A DNA stretch of 64,000 bases from sequence record NC_054906.1. The stretch is one strand, 5' to 3'. The DNA comes from Enterobacteria phage RB18. The translations under genes and the position numbers were made by a program. Within the stretch, counting starts at the first letter, position 1; each line of letters opens with the position of its first letter. Below the pieces are notes generated by a model. The model did no database searches. It was not told the origin of the DNA and worked only from the letters and a program-made list of their open reading frames with translations. Shown one piece after another: positions 2,798-38,048 of the stretch.

Positions 2798-2927
2798 AGT
2801 TTTGTGAAAAAATTTTTAAAAAGTTTTAGGGAATTCTAGGGTCAGGAGGGGCAATTAAAAGATAGGATAATATATTATAAAGGGTAGAAACTAAATGATG
2901 CCTAGAGAGGCCCAGAAAGGCCTAGAT

Positions 2928-2958
2928 ACCAAAAAGCCCCAACCTTTTGGTCGGGGCT
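2928..2958 (-). terminator. rho-independent terminator (minus strand) downstream of ORF 2966..3439
   Basis: Minus-strand hairpin AGCCCCGACC-AAAA-GGTTGGGGCT followed by a T-run; near-identical copy at 3484..3513. Confidence 0.6.
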
Positions 2959-2965
2959 AAGAATG

Positions 2966-3439
2966 TTATTTGATTTGTTTAGCAGACCAAATGCGGTCTT
3001 TAATAATTTTTTGGATGTCTTCAACATACTCTAGGTCATGAGCATGTGGGTTATCTTTAAAACTATAAGCACGAGCTAACTTTTGACCTTCAGTTTTGAT
3101 TACTAAAAGCTCTTTAAGGATAGCTTCATATCTGGAGATAATTCCTTTAACAATATTTTTTTCTTGTGTAGCTTTAGGATCTGCTTTAGGAGCAGGTTTA
3201 CCCGAAGCCTTTGCAAAAGCAGCGCCAGTAGCAACTAAACTTTTCCAGGCCATACTAACTGCATTCCCTGTAAATCCTTCGGCTTTCATATCACGAGCAA
3301 ATTGGAATCGTGATTCATCGGAAGCATCTTTATAGGAATATTTACCCGCGGCAATGGCTGCTTTTGCGACAGCTTGAATTTCGGTGCTAGATGCTTCATT
3401 TAACACCGCTTCATTTAAAAATTGAGCATATGATTTCAT
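2966..3439 (-). CDS. capsid-targeted internal protein candidate (N-terminal CTS-like leader MKSYAQFLNE|A)
   Basis: N-terminus resembles the T4 internal-protein capsid targeting sequence with an L-x-E cleavage motif for prohead protease; own TATAAATA late promoter and AGGAAA Shine-Dalgarno; Ala/Lys-rich. Confidence 0.55.
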   Translation of the reverse strand: MKSYAQFLNEAVLNEASSTEIQAVAKAAIAAGKYSYKDASDESRFQFARDMKAEGFTGNAVSMAWKSLVATGAAFAKASGKPAPKADPKATQEKNIVKGIISRYEAILKELLVIKTEGQKLARAYSFKDNPHAHDLEYVEDIQKIIKDRIWSAKQIK

Positions 3440-3475
3440 CTTATTTCCTGTTTTAATTCGTGGTTTTAATATACT

Positions 3476-3483
3476 TATTTATA
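3476..3483 (-). promoter_or_regulatory. T4-type late promoter TATAAATA (minus strand) for ORF 2966..3439
   Basis: Exact TATAAATA on minus strand, about 37 nt upstream of the ATG, directly after a terminator. Confidence 0.5.
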
Positions 3484-3513
3484 CCAAAAAGCCCCAACCT
3501 TTCGGTCGGGGCT
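3484..3513 (-). terminator. rho-independent terminator (minus strand) after the tRNA-like RNA
   Basis: Minus-strand hairpin AGCCCCGACC-GAAA-GGTTGGGGCT followed by TTTTTGG; paralogous to 2928..2958. Confidence 0.6.
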
Positions 3514-3564
3514 AAGCCTTGCGGCAACCTTGTCGGGGTTCCACCTGCTAAGGCAAGTGTTTGT

Positions 3565-3656
3565 ACGAAACGCCGGGATTCGAACCCGGTTATTAAGCAG
3601 TTGACGCTACTTAATATTTTTAAAAGGCCATATCTCGACCATATCCGAACGTTCCG
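3565..3656 (-). ncRNA. tRNA-like small stable RNA (T-arm and acceptor stem present, no canonical anticodon arm)
   Basis: Minus strand has T-arm CCGGG-TTCGAAT-CCCGG and a 7-bp acceptor-like pairing CGGAACG/CGTTTCG, but the internal region does not fold as a standard cloverleaf; T4-type phages encode such stable RNAs next to the tRNA cluster. Confidence 0.4.
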
Positions 3657-3822
3657 TCAAAAACGCTACTCGGCTTACGGCAAAGATATTTCCTCGAATC
3701 GATAATTCGGTGCGCCGTTTCTGCTGTGATGTAAGAGGGCATCAATAAACGCAAAGATTATTAACGCAATTCCTTACTCAGGGAACATCAGTCCGACGAC
3801 TTACCGGTAGCGACCCGGTTTC

Positions 3823-4173
3823 TTAATATTCTTTTAAAGCATCAATCTGCTCACGGCGTTTACGCCACAAATCAATTGCTTCATACGCGGATTCAGCATT
3901 TCGAATTAGCCGGCATTTATGTAAAGACTTATGATTTTGATATTGTGTAGATAACGGAATTTTATCTAAAAGGTCTTTACGTTCAAAGTATTCGTAACCA
4001 TCTAAGCCAAATGAACGATTTTTAAGAAATTGCCAATGACCATATTCGTTTTCGATATAAACATAATCTGCGTGCTGATAAAGCAAATTAATTACGCGTT
4101 CAGAAATAACAGTGTCATTGTGATTAAAATAGAATGTTAAATCATGAACTACTAAATAAACATTACCTTTCAT
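3823..4173 (-). CDS. hypothetical protein (116 aa) within the tRNA region
   Basis: ORF with ATG start between the tRNA-like RNA and tRNA-Arg. Confidence 0.5.
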   Translation of the reverse strand: MKGNVYLVVHDLTFYFNHNDTVISERVINLLYQHADYVYIENEYGHWQFLKNRSFGLDGYEYFERKDLLDKIPLSTQYQNHKSLHKCRLIRNAESAYEAIDLWRKRREQIDALKEY

Positions 4174-4191: not shown

Positions 4192-4267
4192 TGGTCGAGG
4201 CAGTAGGGATCGAACCTACGACCCAGGACTTAGAAGGTCCTTGCTCTTCCTTCTGAGCTATGCCCCG
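4192..4267 (-). tRNA. tRNA-Arg (anticodon UCU)
   Basis: Hand-folded cloverleaf: acceptor CGGGGCA/TGCCTCG, D-stem GCTC/GAGC, anticodon loop CTTCTAA, T-loop GGTTCGATCC, encoded CCA. Confidence 0.8.
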
Positions 4268-4271
4268 TAAT

Positions 4272-4347
4272 TGGGGTGACCGATGGGAGTCGAACCCATG
4301 ACTACGAGAATCACAATCTCGAGTTCTACCAACTGAACTACGGCCAC
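4272..4347 (-). tRNA. tRNA-His (anticodon GUG)
   Basis: Hand-folded cloverleaf: acceptor GTGGCCG/CGGTCAC, anticodon loop TTGTGAT, T-loop GGGTTCGACTCCC, encoded CCA. Confidence 0.75.
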
Positions 4348-4461
4348 ATTAATACCTACTCCAACAATCAAGATGTCTTCACACGAAATTAAGAGAAGAG
4401 TGATCAGTTCAACCCTTATAATCGCGTCAAGTAGATATTAATGTGACAGTTGTCACAAATT

Positions 4462-4536
4462 TGGCGGACGTGATAGGATTCGAACCTATAACCAATCGCT
4501 TAACAGGCGATCGCTCTGCCATTGAGCTACACATCC
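4462..4536 (-). tRNA. tRNA-Asn (anticodon GUU)
   Basis: Hand-folded cloverleaf: acceptor GGATGTG/CACGTCC, anticodon loop CTGTTAA, T-loop AGGTTCGAATCCT, encoded CCA. Confidence 0.75.
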
Positions 4537-4540
4537 AAAT

Positions 4541-4627
4541 TGGTGGGGAGTGATGGAGTCGAACCACCCGAGTCGCAATGACAATGGATTTACAGTCCAC
4601 ACCGCTACCTCTACGGGATAACTCCCC
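4541..4627 (-). tRNA. tRNA-Tyr (anticodon GUA), class II with long variable arm
   Basis: Acceptor GGGGAGT/ACTCCCC, anticodon stem-loop GTGGA-CTGTAAA-TCCAT, 15-nt variable arm, T-loop GGTTCGACTCC, encoded CCA. Confidence 0.75.
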
Positions 4628-4633
4628 TTAATT

Positions 4634-4708
4634 TGGTGGCCCTGGGTGGAATTGAACCACCATCTGGCGATTATGAGTCGCTTGCTTGAACCTTCCAGCT
4701 ACAGGGCC
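4634..4708 (-). tRNA. tRNA-Ile (anticodon CAU, Ile2/lysidine type; Met not excluded)
   Basis: Acceptor GGCCCTG/CAGGGCC; anticodon stem-loop GCGACTCATAATCGC is the Ile2-type context; encoded CCA. Confidence 0.7.
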
Positions 4709-4709
4709 T

Positions 4710-4785
4710 TGGTGCTGATTGACGGAATCGAACCGCCGACCTTCTCATTACAAGTGAGTTGCTCTACCTATTGAGCTAAATCAGC
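4710..4785 (-). tRNA. tRNA-Thr (anticodon UGU)
   Basis: Acceptor GCTGATT/AATCAGC, D-stem GCTC/GAGC, anticodon loop CTTGTAA, T-loop GGTTCGATTCC, encoded CCA. Confidence 0.8.
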
Positions 4786-4790
4786 AAAAC

Positions 4791-4880
4791 TGGCGGAGGC
4801 GATAGGATTTGAACCTATGAGTCGCCGGAGCGACTGCCGGTTTTCAAGACCGGTGCATTAAACCACTCTGCCACGCCTCC
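4791..4880 (-). tRNA. tRNA-Ser (anticodon UGA), class II with long variable arm
   Basis: Acceptor GGAGGCG/CGCCTCC, anticodon loop CTTGAAA, long variable arm, T-loop GGTTCAAATCC, encoded CCA. Confidence 0.8.
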
Positions 4881-4886
4881 AAATAT

Positions 4887-5537
4887 TTATATATTGTTAA
4901 TTTGATTTAGAATTCTTTTTGCTTGAGTATGACTTACGCCAATATGCTTAGCATATTTAGACAATTCGCCACGTTTAGAAAAATCATATAATTTAGAAAT
5001 TTCTATTCTTCTTTTTCTTTCATCCGCAGAAACTTTTGCTTCGTTCGCTTTTGCTATTTTACGTTTAGCTTCTTGAGAATGAGTTTTACCAGCAAAGCCA
5101 TTCTTCATTAATCCATTTGAAGACCATCCTTTTAATTTTCCGTTAGAATGTGCCTTTTTAACACCCAATGAAATTAATTCGCGCTGCTGATCTGTCATAG
5201 GATAATTATTTATATGGTCCCATCCACCTTCACCTCCAAGTTTTAAATTATACACATCTGGTCTATTTAAAAACTCTTCTGTGACAATATTTTTCTCGGC
5301 TTCAAGCATAGATTCTTTATCGTCAAAATACTCTAATATTTCTTTAGAAAAATTTTCTATACCATATTTATCTTGGGCTCTTTTTAATAATTTACCAGAA
5401 CCCATATATCCATCATCTAAATTTTCGGTAGAATGCACACCAATATAAATTTTATTATTAATTTTATTTGTTATTTTATAAAGATAAAAATGCATATCAG
5501 TCCCTAATAAAGAACTGAGCGTCTCACGACGAGTCAT
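4887..5537 (-). CDS. segB: GIY-YIG homing endonuclease SegB-like, inserted within the tRNA cluster
   Basis: N-terminal GIY-YIG signature YLYKITNKINNKIYIGVHS...GYMGSG; basic C-terminal DNA-binding-like region; sits between tRNA-Gly and tRNA-Ser as segB does in T4-type phages; true start may be the internal ATG at 5495, which has a better Shine-Dalgarno. Confidence 0.8.
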   Translation of the reverse strand: MTRRETLSSLLGTDMHFYLYKITNKINNKIYIGVHSTENLDDGYMGSGKLLKRAQDKYGIENFSKEILEYFDDKESMLEAEKNIVTEEFLNRPDVYNLKLGGEGGWDHINNYPMTDQQRELISLGVKKAHSNGKLKGWSSNGLMKNGFAGKTHSQEAKRKIAKANEAKVSADERKRRIEISKLYDFSKRGELSKYAKHIGVSHTQAKRILNQINNI

Positions 5538-5541
5538 AAAT

Positions 5542-5615
<74 letters not shown>

Positions 5616-5620
5616 AAATT

Positions 5621-5707
5621 TGGTGCGAGAAGTGGGACTCGAACCCACAAGGAAATCATTCCGCAGCATTTTAAGTGCTGTGCCTTTACCAATTTGACCA
5701 TTCTCGC
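5621..5707 (-). tRNA. tRNA-Leu (anticodon UAA), class II
   Basis: Acceptor GCGAGAA/TTCTCGC, anticodon loop CTTAAAA, long variable arm, T-loop GGGTTCGAGTCCC, encoded CCA; abuts tRNA-Gln as a Gln-Leu dimer. Confidence 0.8.
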
Positions 5708-5708
5708 G

Positions 5709-5781
5709 CTGGGAATAAAGGACTCGAACCTTTGCATCCTGGAATCAAAATCCAGTGCCTTACCAACTTGGCTAATTCCCA
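5709..5781 (-). tRNA. tRNA-Gln (anticodon UUG)
   Basis: Acceptor TGGGAAT/ATTCCCA, anticodon stem-loop CTGGA-TTTTGAT-TCCAG, T-loop AGGTTCGAGTCCT; CCA not encoded. Confidence 0.8.
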
Positions 5782-7275: not shown

Positions 7276-7303
7276 TTTATTCTCCTCGGTAGTTGATAGG
7301 GTA

Positions 7304-7333
7304 ATAGTATCACTACCCTATCTAAAAGTAAAC
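7304..7333 (-). promoter_or_regulatory. early-type promoter element (minus strand: -35 GTTTAC, 18-nt spacer, -10 TACTAT)
   Basis: Minus strand GTTTACTTTTAGATAGGGTAGTGATACTATTACCCTATCAA; shares an identical 24-mer with the copy 300 bp upstream. Confidence 0.45.
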
Positions 7334-7567
7334 TTATTTTTTACGAAAAATTGATTTATATTTATCAGCCCATTTCTCAATGACTTTTGCCGGGCCATAG
7401 ATAACAAAGTAATCGCCAAACTCTTCACCACCGAGTTGACCGAAATCATCTAATGCATCACGAAGAACTCCATGAGGCATTTCACCCATTTTATCTTTCT
7501 TGCCAGTGTAAATAAACTCAACTTTTACATCAGCAGTTTCAGCAATAAATTCTTGATACGTTTTCAT
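7334..7567 (-). CDS. ipI: internal protein I-like capsid-targeted protein (CTS leader MKTYQEFIAE)
   Basis: ATG at 7567 with GGAG Shine-Dalgarno (track ORF starts at an upstream GTG); N-terminus is the internal-protein capsid targeting sequence with L/I-x-E cleavage motif; position between 57B and the tRNA region matches the ipI locus. Confidence 0.7.
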   Translation of the reverse strand: MKTYQEFIAETADVKVEFIYTGKKDKMGEMPHGVLRDALDDFGQLGGEEFGDYFVIYGPAKVIEKWADKYKSIFRKK

Positions 7568-7603
7568 TTTGTTCTCCAATTTCACATTTGTTTTGATAGG
7601 GTA

Positions 7604-7633
7604 ATAGTATCACTACTAAAACCCCATGTAAAC
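7604..7633 (-). promoter_or_regulatory. early-type promoter element upstream of the ipI-like gene (minus strand: -35 GTTTACA, 17-nt spacer, -10 TACTAT)
   Basis: Minus strand TTTAAAATAATTTCACAAAGTTGTTTACATGGGGTTTTAGTAGTGATACTATTACCCTATCAA. Confidence 0.45.
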
Positions 7634-9742: not shown

Positions 9743-10567
9743 TTAGATATTTGACCAGACTTTGTTTGCAGAGAAACGTTTTCCTTTTGAAACGAACTGC
9801 TGAAGTGGCATTAACACAACGTTCGCCCAGTCTTTCGGGGCGATTTCAACAAGGCTACCCATAATATTACCAGGTATATATGCCTTAATCATTTGGTCTG
9901 CACCCCTAAATCCTTTCACTTGACTCCAATCAATTTTTAATTTCGTTTTATTAGTAATAGTAGGTGTATTTGCATATTGCTTTAAAAGCTCTTCTAGGAA
10001 TTGCTGACGAGCTTTAGGTGGAATATAGTGCAAGTTTAATCCGTACATTAAATTATGCTTACCTAAACCAAGGTAAATTACCAAAGGAAATTTATCCCAA
10101 TAAGGAAGAGTTTCCTTGTGTTTAGCATCATAAGCAAAAGCATATATTCGTCCCGGCTGCGGGCGAACAACTTTATGTCCTTTTACTTGCTTAATAGTTT
10201 CAGCAAACCATTTTCTGGTTTTATTATTAATTGCTGCGCCTTCATTACGAATTTTATCGCGCAATGTTTGTCTGAATGAATTTATCATAAGCAGTTGTCT
10301 TTCTTGCTTATTGAGCTTATTCATTGGTTTTGATTCAAGCTTTTGAATCTTTTCAGCCGTTTTAATTCCTGAAGCATATTTTGACATTGCCGAAGTAAAC
10401 GTAGAGTATTTGATTCCTCTTTCTTCAGCAAATTGTTTTCCTGTCATTCCTTTTGCTTTGGCCTTTTTATATTCAAGACCTATTTGAATCCATTTCTTTT
10501 CGTTTAATGATTGCTTAACCTTTGGAACTTGGGGAGTGCTTTCATTAATTATTTGAAAAATAGCCAT
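9743..10567 (-). CDS. 2: gp2 DNA end-protector protein (274 aa)
   Basis: Size and position match T4 gp2; basic protein; TAATG overlap with gene 4 stop. Confidence 0.9.
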
Positions 10568-11019
10568 TATGCCCCCTTAAAGCCAAGAGCTCGTAATCCA
10601 TCTTCTGTTAGAATTCTAAATTTTATTCCACGCTTTTCAGCTAAAGATTGTGCTGCTTTCCATTTATCAGTGTTCACAGACCAGGTATAAATTTCATTCA
10701 TAAATCTTTTCTTCGCTGCGGTTGTTAGATGTGCTGGTTTAACTGGTGGTTGTGTTTCTTTTTTAGGTTTTATTTCAATAAAAAATTCTTGTCCAGAAGA
10801 ATCTTTCATCCAAATATCCATGAAGTATCTACGTTTTTTCCCTTCTGCATTACAAAAATAAGGAATTACTGCTGTTTCACTACCCCATGCAATAATTTCT
10901 GGATTTTTATCTAACCATTCAAAAAAGAATTTTTCCCAATTTGATCTATACGTAATTTTTTTAGGGTCACCTCTATACTTTGATATATTTTTAGGAACCC
11001 ATTTTCCAGAATATGCCAT
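10567..11019 (-). CDS. 4: gp4 head completion protein (150 aa)
   Basis: Size and position match T4 gp4, divergent from gene 53. Confidence 0.9.
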
Positions 11020-35899: not shown

Positions 35900-35900
<1 letters not shown>

Positions 35901-36145
35901 TGGAAGGTTTAATTGAAGCTATTAAATCAAACGACCTCGTAGCCGCTCGTAAATTATTTGCTGAAGCCATGGCTGCAAGAACGATTGATTTAATTAAAGA
36001 AGAAAAAATCGCTATCGCTCGTAATTTCTTAATCGAAGGTGAAGAACCTGATGACGAGGATGATGACGAAGACGAAGACGAAGATAGTGATGATAAAGAC
36101 GACAAAAAAGACAAAGACTCTGACGAAGACGAGGATGATGAATAA
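35900..36145 (+). CDS. 67: gp67 prohead core protein with poly-acidic C-terminus (81 aa)
   Basis: Small protein ending in [34 protein letters not shown]; position between 20 and 68. Confidence 0.9.
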
Positions 36146-36570
36146 TGCTTCTGATCCCTGAAACTCATGAATTAGTTCTCGAGAATGTCGAAGCACTTAT
36201 TCCTGAAGCACAGGGTCGCTTTGACGAATTGTCTTCTGCTTTAAATAAAGACGATATAAATACAATTGTCGAGAATATGCTTGATGATGAAACTGATTTA
36301 GCGGTTGCATTAGCTTCTATTAATGAAAATATGCCGTTAAATGAATTTATCGTTAAACATGTTTCCGCCCGTGGTGAAATTACTCGCACTAAAGACCGCA
36401 AAACGCGTGAACGTAATGCATTTCAAACCACTGGGCTGTCTAAAGCAAAACGTAGACAAATTGCTCGTAAAGCTACCAAAACGAAGATTGCCAATCCAGC
36501 AGGTCAATCTCGTGCTCAGCGTAAGCGTAAAAAAGCTCTTAAACGCCGTAAAGCATTAGGATTAAGCTAA
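36145..36570 (+). CDS. 68: gp68 prohead core protein (141 aa)
   Basis: Size and order match T4 gp68; basic C-terminus. Confidence 0.9.
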
Positions 36571-37208
36571 TGAATGAACCCCAATTACTAATTGAAACTT
36601 GGGGTCAACCTGGCGAAATTATTGATGGCGTACCAATGCTTGAATCTCATGATGGAAAAGACTTAGGTTTAAAACCGGGTTTATACATCGAAGGAATATT
36701 CATGCAAGCGGAAGTTGTCAATAGAAATAAACGTCTTTATCCAAAACGTATATTAGAAAAAGCGGTAAAAGACTATATTAATGAGCAAGTTTTAACTAAA
36801 CAAGCTCTCGGAGAATTAAATCATCCTCCACGCGCTAATGTTGACCCGATGCAAGCCGCTATCATTATAGAAGATATGTGGTGGAAAGGAAATGACGTAT
36901 ACGGACGAGCTCGTGTTATTGAAGGTGACCATGGTCCTGGAGATAAATTAGCAGCTAATATTCGTGCCGGATGGATTCCAGGAGTTTCTTCTCGTGGATT
37001 AGGTTCATTGACTGACACAAATAAAGGTTATCGTATCGTAAACGAAGGATTCAAATTAACTGTAGGTGTTGATGCAGTATGGGGTCCAAGTGCTCCAGAT
37101 GCATGGGTAACTCCTAAGGAAATTACCGAATCACAGACGGCGGAAGCCGATACAAGTGCCGATGACGCCTATATGGCTCTCGCAGAGGCCATGAAAAAAG
37201 CGTTATAA
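36570..37208 (+). CDS. 21: gp21 prohead core scaffold and protease (212 aa)
   Basis: Size and order match T4 gp21. Confidence 0.95.
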   Translation: MNEPQLLIETWGQPGEIIDGVPMLESHDGKDLGLKPGLYIEGIFMQAEVVNRNKRLYPKRILEKAVKDYINEQVLTKQALGELNHPPRANVDPMQAAIIIEDMWWKGNDVYGRARVIEGDHGPGDKLAANIRAGWIPGVSSRGLGSLTDTNKGYRIVNEGFKLTVGVDAVWGPSAPDAWVTPKEITESQTAEADTSADDAYMALAEAMKKAL

Positions 37209-37238: not shown

Positions 37239-38048
37239 ATGCTTAAAGAACAACTGATTGCCGAAGCGCAGAAAATTGATGCTTCCGTTGCTCTTGATAG
37301 TATTTTCGAATCAGTTAATATTTCTCCGGAAGCAAAAGAAACTTTCGGCACTGTATTCGAAGCTACCGTCAAGCAGCACGCCGTTAAATTAGCTGAATCT
37401 CATATCGCTAAAATTGCTGAAAAAGCAGAAGAAGAAGTAGAAAAAAATAAAGAAGAAGCCGAAGAAAAAGCTGAGAAGAAAATCGCTGAGCAAGCTTCTA
37501 AATTCATTGACCATCTTGCGAAAGAATGGCTCGCTGAAAATAAATTAGCAGTTGATAAAGGCATCAAAGCCGAACTGTTTGAATCCATGCTTGGTGGATT
37601 AAAAGAGCTCTTTGTTGAACACAACGTTGTTGTTCCAGAAGAATCAGTTGATGTTGTAGCTGAAATGGAAGAAGAGCTGCAAGAACATAAAGAAGAATCA
37701 GCTCGTCTGTTCGAAGAACTCAATAAGCGTGACGCATATATCAATTATGTGCAGCGTGAAGTGGCATTGAGCGAAAGTACTAAAGATCTGACTGAGTCTC
37801 AAAAAGAAAAAGTCTCTGCTCTGGTCGAAGGTATGGATTATTCAGATGCATTCTCAAGTAAATTGAGTGCAATCGTAGAAATGGTGAAGAAATCTAATAA
37901 AGATGAAAGCACTATTACTGAGAGTATAAATACTCCTGATACTGAAGCAGCCGGACTGAATTTCGTCACTGAAGCTGTAGAAGATAAAGCTGCACAGGGT
38001 GCAGAAGATATTGTAAGTGTATATGCGAAAGTCGCATCTCGTTTCTAA
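37239..38048 (+). CDS. 22: gp22 major prohead scaffolding core protein (269 aa)
   Basis: Glu/Lys-rich helical protein; size equals T4 gp22. Confidence 0.95.
   Translation: MLKEQLIAEAQKIDASVALDSIFESVNISPEAKETFGTVFEATVKQHAVKLAESHIAKIAEKAEEEVEKNKEEAEEKAEKKIAEQASKFIDHLAKEWLAENKLAVDKGIKAELFESMLGGLKELFVEHNVVVPEESVDVVAEMEEELQEHKEESARLFEELNKRDAYINYVQREVALSESTKDLTESQKEKVSALVEGMDYSDAFSSKLSAIVEMVKKSNKDESTITESINTPDTEAAGLNFVTEAVEDKAAQGAEDIVSVYAKVASRF

Follow-up and report, generated by a model that had tools for sequence, protein, structure and literature searches.

The internal proteins of T-even phages are a class defined by an N-terminal signal, of which at least ten members have been reported (Repoila et al. 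1994, as cited in PMC12373910). Mutagenesis of IPIII by the Black laboratory placed capsid targeting at residues 4 and 7 and processing at residues 8 and 10, and in T4 ten such residues are enough to direct a foreign protein to the head interior (PMC9026906). On ECOR17, IPIII is required. Ip1, Ip2 and Ip3 inhibit GmrSD-type enzymes, a different one in each case (PMC12373910), and Bas37_0260, encoded at the ipI locus, inhibits McrBC (bioRxiv 10.1101/2025.11.20.689424). Ip1, Ip2, Ip3 and Bas37_0260 are unrelated to each other beyond the packaging signal, and they set the precedent for disarming type IV restriction on entry. A second relevant system is the promoter-early stem-loop (PeSL) cassette of RB49 and phi1 (Arbiol et al. 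2010; PMC2839356). There, one accessory gene with its own promoter and terminator stands between repeats of a regulatory element that includes a G/C-rich stem-loop, and a close relative cleanly lacks the gene and keeps one copy of the element. Here we describe a gene that shares traits with both systems; its product is probably an internal protein, packaged in the capsid and injected, that has so far gone unnamed in T4-like phages.

The gene, its locus and its N-terminal tag

The stretch of DNA analysed (64,000 nucleotides; the window) belongs to Tequatrovirus, as the region of interest is 96–99% identical to several hundred genomes of that genus. An ATG-initiated open reading frame on its minus strand (2966..3439, 157 codons plus stop) encodes a protein that begins MKSYAQFLNEAVLNEASS and contains 17.2% Ala and 12.7% Lys, which bears out the 157-residue Ala/Lys-rich product described in an initial annotation. 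The protein is identical to RB18 gp136, has the orthologues RB32ORF133c and RB33_134, and falls into PHROG 2280 (function unknown; E = 7.5e-60). Of RB32ORF133c, the RB32 annotation says only ‘flanked by 34 bp imperfect direct repeat’. Among the family members whose public names we read, all are called hypothetical, uncharacterized or ‘Phage protein’, with the single exception of a UniRef entry for the homologue from Klebsiella phage KPKp, named ‘Internal head protein’. We found no paper in the searchable literature that mentions RB32ORF133c or its equivalents, and nothing on the gene family.

The gene lies between e.8 and the small RNAs rnaC/rnaD, downstream of a tRNA cluster (4192-5781). It therefore shares the neighbourhood of the tRNA genes, as had been proposed, without adjoining them directly: a stretch homologous to rnaC/rnaD (3520-3790, identified by homology to annotated features of T4 and RB33, Rfam having no model) and a 116-residue open reading frame separate it from tRNA-Arg (4192). 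The initial annotation was also right that the position differs from the T4 ipII/ipIII locus (denV-e). It differs from the T4 ipI locus (tRNA.4-57B) as well, and in T4 the spot holds no gene. The interval between e.8 and rnaC is thus likely to be a third locus for internal proteins in T4-like phages.

The surroundings vary among relatives. The 116-residue open reading frame (3823-4173, minus strand; PHROG 3355, function unknown), which sits between the rnaD-homologous region and tRNA-Arg, has a counterpart of equal length at the same place in T2 and none in T4 or RB33. The tRNA cluster comprises ten genes (Arg, His, Asn, Tyr, Met, Thr, Ser, Gly, Leu and Gln); compared with the eight of T4, Pro is missing and His, Asn and Tyr are extra. 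Between tRNA-Ser and tRNA-Gly lies a 216-residue open reading frame (4887-5537) with a GIY-YIG-like N-terminus, placed differently from segB of T4 and RB33.

Codons 1-10 of the gene, MKSYAQFLNE (3410..3439, minus strand), form a putative capsid targeting sequence that ends in the first of two L-x-E motifs of the kind cut by the gp21 prohead protease. All critical positions are satisfied (Y4, F7, L8 and E10), and the Tequatrovirus version departs from the canonical tag in having Q instead of E at position 6 and S instead of T at position 3. The initial annotation had read this N-terminus as a mimic of the targeting and cleavage signals, and it does match annotated internal proteins at the critical residues: it is of the same kind as the N-termini of 14 annotated internal proteins or internal protein-like open reading frames from six phages (T4, T6, T2, RB33, mogra and phiR1-RT), the consensus of which is MKT[YF]x[EK]EF[IL]xE[AST]. 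The same kind of packaging signal is reported for Bas37_0260 and is found in Ip1, Ip2 and Ip3. Codons 11-15, AVLNE (3395..3409, minus strand), are an insertion of five residues, confined to the Tequatrovirus clade, that creates a second, tandem copy of the cleavage motif (LNE/AVLNE/A, with slashes at the expected cuts). As L-N-E/A thus occurs twice (L8-N9-E10/A11 and L13-N14-E15/A16), the mature N-terminus could be A11 or A16.

We scanned all Met-initiated open reading frames of at least 40 residues in the six frames of the window with the pattern MK.[YF]..F[ILVM].{1,2}E. Two matched: the present gene and an Ip6 gene at 7334..7567. A looser pattern also picks up gp24 (N-terminus LRE/S), a known gp21 substrate that serves as a control. 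Across the family, the tag M-x-x-[YF]-x-x-F-[LV]-x-E-[AGSQ] is kept in relatives that are only 24–37% identical and that belong to at least six T4-like genera. When 12 sequences with identities as low as 24% are aligned, M1 and F7 never vary, L8 hardly does, and position 4 is Y or F; the last tag residue is E in all 12, and A, G, S or Q comes next. The Mosigvirus version reads MKSYAEFLTEQ, and that of one further family member (P0003), MKTYNEFLNES, is nearly the same as MKTYNEFITEA of phiR1-RT IpII. The tag is the best-conserved stretch of the family, which makes a chance or relic motif unlikely, and we judge that the resemblance to a capsid targeting sequence is not a matter of chance. The enzyme expected to remove the tag, gp21 (Peptidase_S77; 36570..37208, plus strand), is encoded in the same window, as are the gp22 scaffold (37239-38048) and the gp67 core protein (35900-36145).

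The Ip6 gene (7334..7567, minus strand) is the only gene at the ipI locus of the window. Its product begins MKTYQEFIAE/T, is identical to T6 Ip6 over the first 28 residues and belongs to PHROG 8111 (internal virion protein). The gene has a sigma-70-like promoter and no TATAAATA late box directly upstream, and late promoters are therefore no defining feature of internal protein genes. It is flanked by an exact 24-nt direct repeat, GTAGTGATACTATTACCCTATCAA (7293-7316 and 7593-7616, minus strand), embedded in sigma-70-like promoter sequence (GTTTAC...TACTAT); judged by these motifs, the Ip6 cassette is bounded by promoters instead of terminators. In phiR1-RT (L013), a 52-residue ‘hypothetical protein’ encoded between tRNA-Gly and tRNA-Trp (g134, 10421-10579) starts MKTYIEFINE and may be another unannotated, miniature internal protein beside tRNA genes.

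Promoter, terminators and distribution

The gene had been credited with a late promoter of its own and with two paralogous terminators that bracket it; the terminators are present, and so is the motif of a late promoter. A late-promoter box, TATAAATA (3476..3483, minus strand), lies 36 nt upstream of the ATG, and a Shine–Dalgarno sequence, AGGAA (3445..3449, minus strand), can be read directly 5 nt before it. One TATAAATA match is not proof in itself, because about ten occurrences are expected by chance in the window (24 observed versus 9.9 ± 3.0 expected). The box at 3476..3483 is intergenic, and its position is conserved in several genera. An identical box occurs at the same distance in RB33 and in the Klebsiella phage KpV477, a Jiaodavirus in which the order of elements is also the same (hairpin, T-run, TATAAATA, about 36 nt, ATG). 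Variants are AATAAATA in mogra, 29 nt upstream, and GATAAATA and CATAAATA at similar distances in two metagenomic lineages (L009 and L011/12, respectively). Overall, an xATAAATA box 29–38 nt upstream of the gene, often right after a terminator hairpin, is present in Tequatrovirus, Mosigvirus, Jiaodavirus and the two metagenomic lineages; the Mosigvirus and metagenomic boxes deviate from TATAAATA at the first base. The homologue in a Cronobacter phage has no late box upstream and overlaps the preceding open reading frame.

On either side of the gene lies a copy of a 36-nt direct repeat (2926..2961 and 3481..3516, minus strand; 97% identical), and each copy holds an intrinsic terminator with a 10-bp stem (7 G-C pairs), a 4-nt loop and a TTTTT tail. 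The upstream hairpin (3513..3490; −20.3 kcal/mol, z-score −3.5) would end transcription arriving from the tRNA/rnaC region, and the downstream hairpin (2958..2935; −19.5 kcal/mol, z-score −4.5) is the terminator of the gene itself. The first bases (TAT) of the TATAAATA box overlap the end of the upstream repeat. No sigma-70-like site was found upstream of the gene on the coding strand, which, together with the strong terminator directly upstream, predicts late-only transcription. A late-only protein can act early in infection solely if it is carried in the particle, which fits the tag.

The gene is widespread. A tblastn search found it in 510 phage records, 468 of which have at least 80% coverage, and family members within Tequatrovirus are 95–99% identical. 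It occupies the same position downstream of tRNA genes in Mosigvirus, Jiaodavirus and Muldoonvirus, and occurs also in Marfavirus, Tegunavirus fHe-Yen9-01 and Serratia phage PS2. The carriers include phages of E. coli, Shigella, Klebsiella, Yersinia and Cronobacter, among them RB18, RB32, RB33 and AR1, and members of the BASEL collection such as Bas42 (bas42_0248). The ratio dN/dS is 0.077 relative to RB33 and 0.069 relative to Mosigvirus mogra at a dS of about 2; we conclude from these comparisons that the gene is real and under strong purifying selection.

The gene is nevertheless polymorphic in presence among close relatives, a non-essential accessory pattern seen for other internal proteins. 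T4 lacks it and has one terminator copy between e.8 and rnaC, equivalent to the upstream repeat. Aligned with T4, the window carries a clean 555-bp extra segment, made up of the gene with its late box and of a second copy of the terminator, between near-identical flanks. Recombination between the two terminator copies would explain the clean absence from T4. T2 and T6 also lack the gene, and its absence from these three phages explains why classical work on T-even phages missed it. The simplest history would be that of an old gene lost from the T2, T4 and T6 lineages through such recombination; a recent insertion into an RB32-type lineage is less likely, as the locus is occupied in Mosigvirus, Jiaodavirus and Muldoonvirus.

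In its sequence arrangement, the cassette thus resembles the PeSL cassettes in each of the traits named above: a single accessory gene between repeated elements with a G/C-rich stem-loop, its own promoter and terminator, and a close relative that cleanly lacks the gene and retains one element. It differs from them in that the repeated element is an intrinsic terminator and that a late TATAAATA box, instead of a sigma-70 early promoter, straddles the boundary of the repeat.

Architecture of the protein

An AlphaFold2 model built on a shallow alignment of 8 sequences (mean pLDDT 74.5) predicts a disordered N-terminus (residues 1-15), a helical N-domain (about 18-75), a linker (about 76-87) and a helical hairpin (88-155). 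The N-domain, which we delimit at residues 16-78 (3206..3394, minus strand), is conserved, contains the motifs GKYSYKD...RFQF...AWKS and is modelled with a pLDDT of 85–91. The disordered linker, SGKPAPKAD (residues 79-87; 3179..3205, minus strand), is rich in Pro, Lys and Ala. Residues 88-157 (2969..3178, minus strand) make up a C-terminal hairpin that we term class A (...DRIWSAKQIK); phages of Klebsiella, Yersinia and Cronobacter have a class B hairpin instead (...VGDVGRHYKKL). The mature protein has a pI of 9.4 and contains 17.7% Ala and 12.9% Lys, a composition like that of T4 IPII and IPIII.

Beyond the tag, the family stands by itself. BLASTP against the T4 proteins compared, including Ip1-3, found similarity in residues 1-16 only and none in the mature region. 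Pfam and NCBIfam recognize no domain in the 157-residue protein, Foldseek found no match in the PDB below E = 1, and a PDB profile search gave no match. A fold search of BFVD returned only the family itself, including the member from Serratia phage PS2, and a profile search of 1.8 billion representative proteins yielded only 13 relatives, of which those that could be placed come from T4-like phages. Structure prediction, proposed in the initial annotation as a check, therefore delivered a helical model and no informative fold match. Clear homology to a non-packaged protein, which had been named as an observation that would speak against an internal protein, did not appear in the domain, fold and profile searches.

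A homopolymer run, A7 (3156..3162, minus strand; codons 93-95), lies at the boundary between the linker and the C-terminal domain. Public genomes contain A6 variants that give 111- and 108-residue forms (P0006 and P0009) and A8 variants that give 97- and 93-residue forms (P0026, P0040, P0008 and P0042), and these truncated forms are found in both the Tequatrovirus and Mosigvirus clades. They could stem from homopolymer sequencing errors, or from a true hot spot of mutation at which the C-terminal module is lost. The in-frame A AAA AAT, with a stop 4 codons into the −1 frame, resembles a slippery site; we dropped the idea of programmed −1 frameshifting to the 97-residue form, as no stimulatory element is visible. 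The KpV477 record (L005) has an in-frame TAA at about 3229-3231, where relatives have Lys, and annotates a 78-residue fragment only; the copy is either a pseudogene or the product of a sequencing error.

Possible functions and alternatives

The reading of the gene product as an internal protein, put forward in the initial annotation, is well supported by independent lines of comparative sequence evidence, namely the tag, the late box and the presence of gp21 with gp22 and gp67 in the genome. The protein shares with T4 IPII and IPIII and with the Ip4-Ip10+ series a tag of about 10 residues, MK[ST][YF]x[EQ]F[IL]xE, followed by a small residue, and with IPII and IPIII a small, basic, Ala/Lys-rich mature protein. 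Like the internal protein genes of T-even phages, the gene is non-essential, polymorphic in presence and absence, flanked by short regulatory direct repeats and located in the e-tRNA-57B part of the genome. It departs from the T4 examples in several respects: the protein has no similarity to IPII or IPIII beyond the tag, carries a tandem duplicated cleavage motif and is predicted to consist of two domains with an exchangeable C-terminal hairpin; the gene lies at the e.8-rnaC locus instead of denV-e or tRNA.4-57B; and the family, known from sequence alone, spans at least six genera instead of T-even phages only. Ip1, Ip2, Ip3 and Bas37_0260 are encoded at the ipI or ipII/III loci; the present protein has no homology to Ip1-3, and we liken it to Bas37_0260 by description, not by sequence. 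In the literature we found no virion mass-spectrometry data for any carrier phage, including in the RB69 arabinosylation and fPS-65 papers; LC–MS/MS virion data exist for phiR1-RT, but the region of phiR1-RT that we compared contains no homologue of the gene.

These features suggest a course of events for an injected internal protein. As judged from the motifs and their conservation, the upstream terminator would keep early and middle transcripts of the tRNA/rnaC region from running into the gene, and TATAAATA would drive its late transcription. During prohead assembly, MKSYAQFLNE would bind the protein to the gp22/gp67 scaffolding core, as the match at Y4 and F7 suggests. Cleavage of the 17.3-kDa precursor by gp21 after E10 and/or E15 would release a basic mature protein of about 15.5–16 kDa (pI about 9.4), and the expected new N-terminal peptide is AVLNEASSTEIQAVAK for a cut after E10 or ASSTEIQAVAK for a cut after E15. 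By analogy with known internal proteins, the mature protein would then stay in the head with the DNA and enter the next host alongside it. Inside that host it would most likely neutralize a first-line defence, possibly a type IV restriction enzyme with glycosylated hmC DNA as its substrate. This last step is the weakest of the mechanism and draws purely on analogy; precedent makes it our best guess for the role, and we offer an anti-defence function against type IV restriction as a tentative proposal, possible rather than probable. The family is conserved to an unusual degree (95–99% identity within Tequatrovirus) and holds its locus from genus to genus, which is less typical of an arms-race effector; a role in structure or in handling DNA would fit this too.

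A role in head morphogenesis has been suggested for IPIII. A packaged and processed protein might accordingly have a structural or physical task, as a basic DNA- or core-associated protein that aids head assembly, DNA condensation or ejection. Its basic, Ala/Lys-rich composition, like that of IPII and IPIII, which bind DNA at low salt, points this way, as do the strong purifying selection (dN/dS 0.07), the predicted simple architecture of a helical hairpin and flexible linker, and the retention of one locus in at least six genera, unlike the rapidly exchanged internal proteins of the ipI locus. We nevertheless consider such a task unlikely: the gene is dispensable in nature, given that T2, T4 and T6 are cleanly without it and frameshifted copies circulate, the internal proteins with a function known to date are all restriction inhibitors, and the way lineages have exchanged the C-terminal module suggests adaptation to targets of their own. 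Were the product instead a late protein that stays out of the particle, its tag would be a recombination relic or serve another use, and its role would be cytoplasmic (in the timing of lysis, in superinfection exclusion or as an assembly chaperone, for instance). The departures from the canonical tag at positions 3 (S) and 6 (Q) would agree with this, as would several T4 late genes, such as e, t, 57A and rI, that encode non-virion proteins, but a relic would not stay the most conserved segment, with F7 invariant, in relatives at 24–37% identity, and, as ten such residues suffice in T4 (PMC9026906), a tagged protein made during prohead assembly should be packaged whatever its purpose; a product kept out of the particle is therefore quite improbable.

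That there is no functional gene, only a chance open reading frame or a decaying remnant in a duplicated terminator region, is barely credible. The databases do contain copies that are truncated or frameshifted, and one interrupted by an in-frame stop; set against these are a dN/dS of 0.07–0.08 at dS values up to about 2, the 468 phage records with at least 80% of the protein, the PHROG match (E = 7.5e-60), the confident helical model of the N-domain, and a Shine–Dalgarno sequence, promoter box and terminator that are all in place. The selection and conservation data refute this reading in practice. There is finally a bolder form of the internal protein reading, which we regard as very improbable, in which this would be the sole internal protein ancestral to T4-like enterobacterial phages, with a conserved N-domain, an exchangeable C-terminal hairpin, a target other than type IV enzymes and a real switch at the A7 run. 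The gene, kept at one spot downstream of the tRNA cluster in at least six genera, would have been lost by T2, T4 and T6. This form would also imply, and here too we give it a very small chance, that the A7 switch removes the C-terminal module in part of the population and is not a sequencing artefact.

Returning to the preferred reading, what is new is most likely a further member of the known class of internal proteins, encoded at a third locus and absent from T2, T4 and T6. Among phage proteins, injected internal proteins are the first that host immunity encounters, and every one with a function found since 2022 (Ip1, Ip2, Ip3 and Bas37_0260) has turned out to inhibit a restriction system specifically. 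The family described here is present in about 500 sequenced phages, including phages of the therapeutic type, and nearly all copies seen are annotated as hypothetical. Naming them as internal protein candidates could reveal a new pair of inhibitor and defence system and a determinant of host range, and the gene would add to the biology of T4-like phages a third internal protein locus and a late-promoter/terminator version of cassette shuffling.
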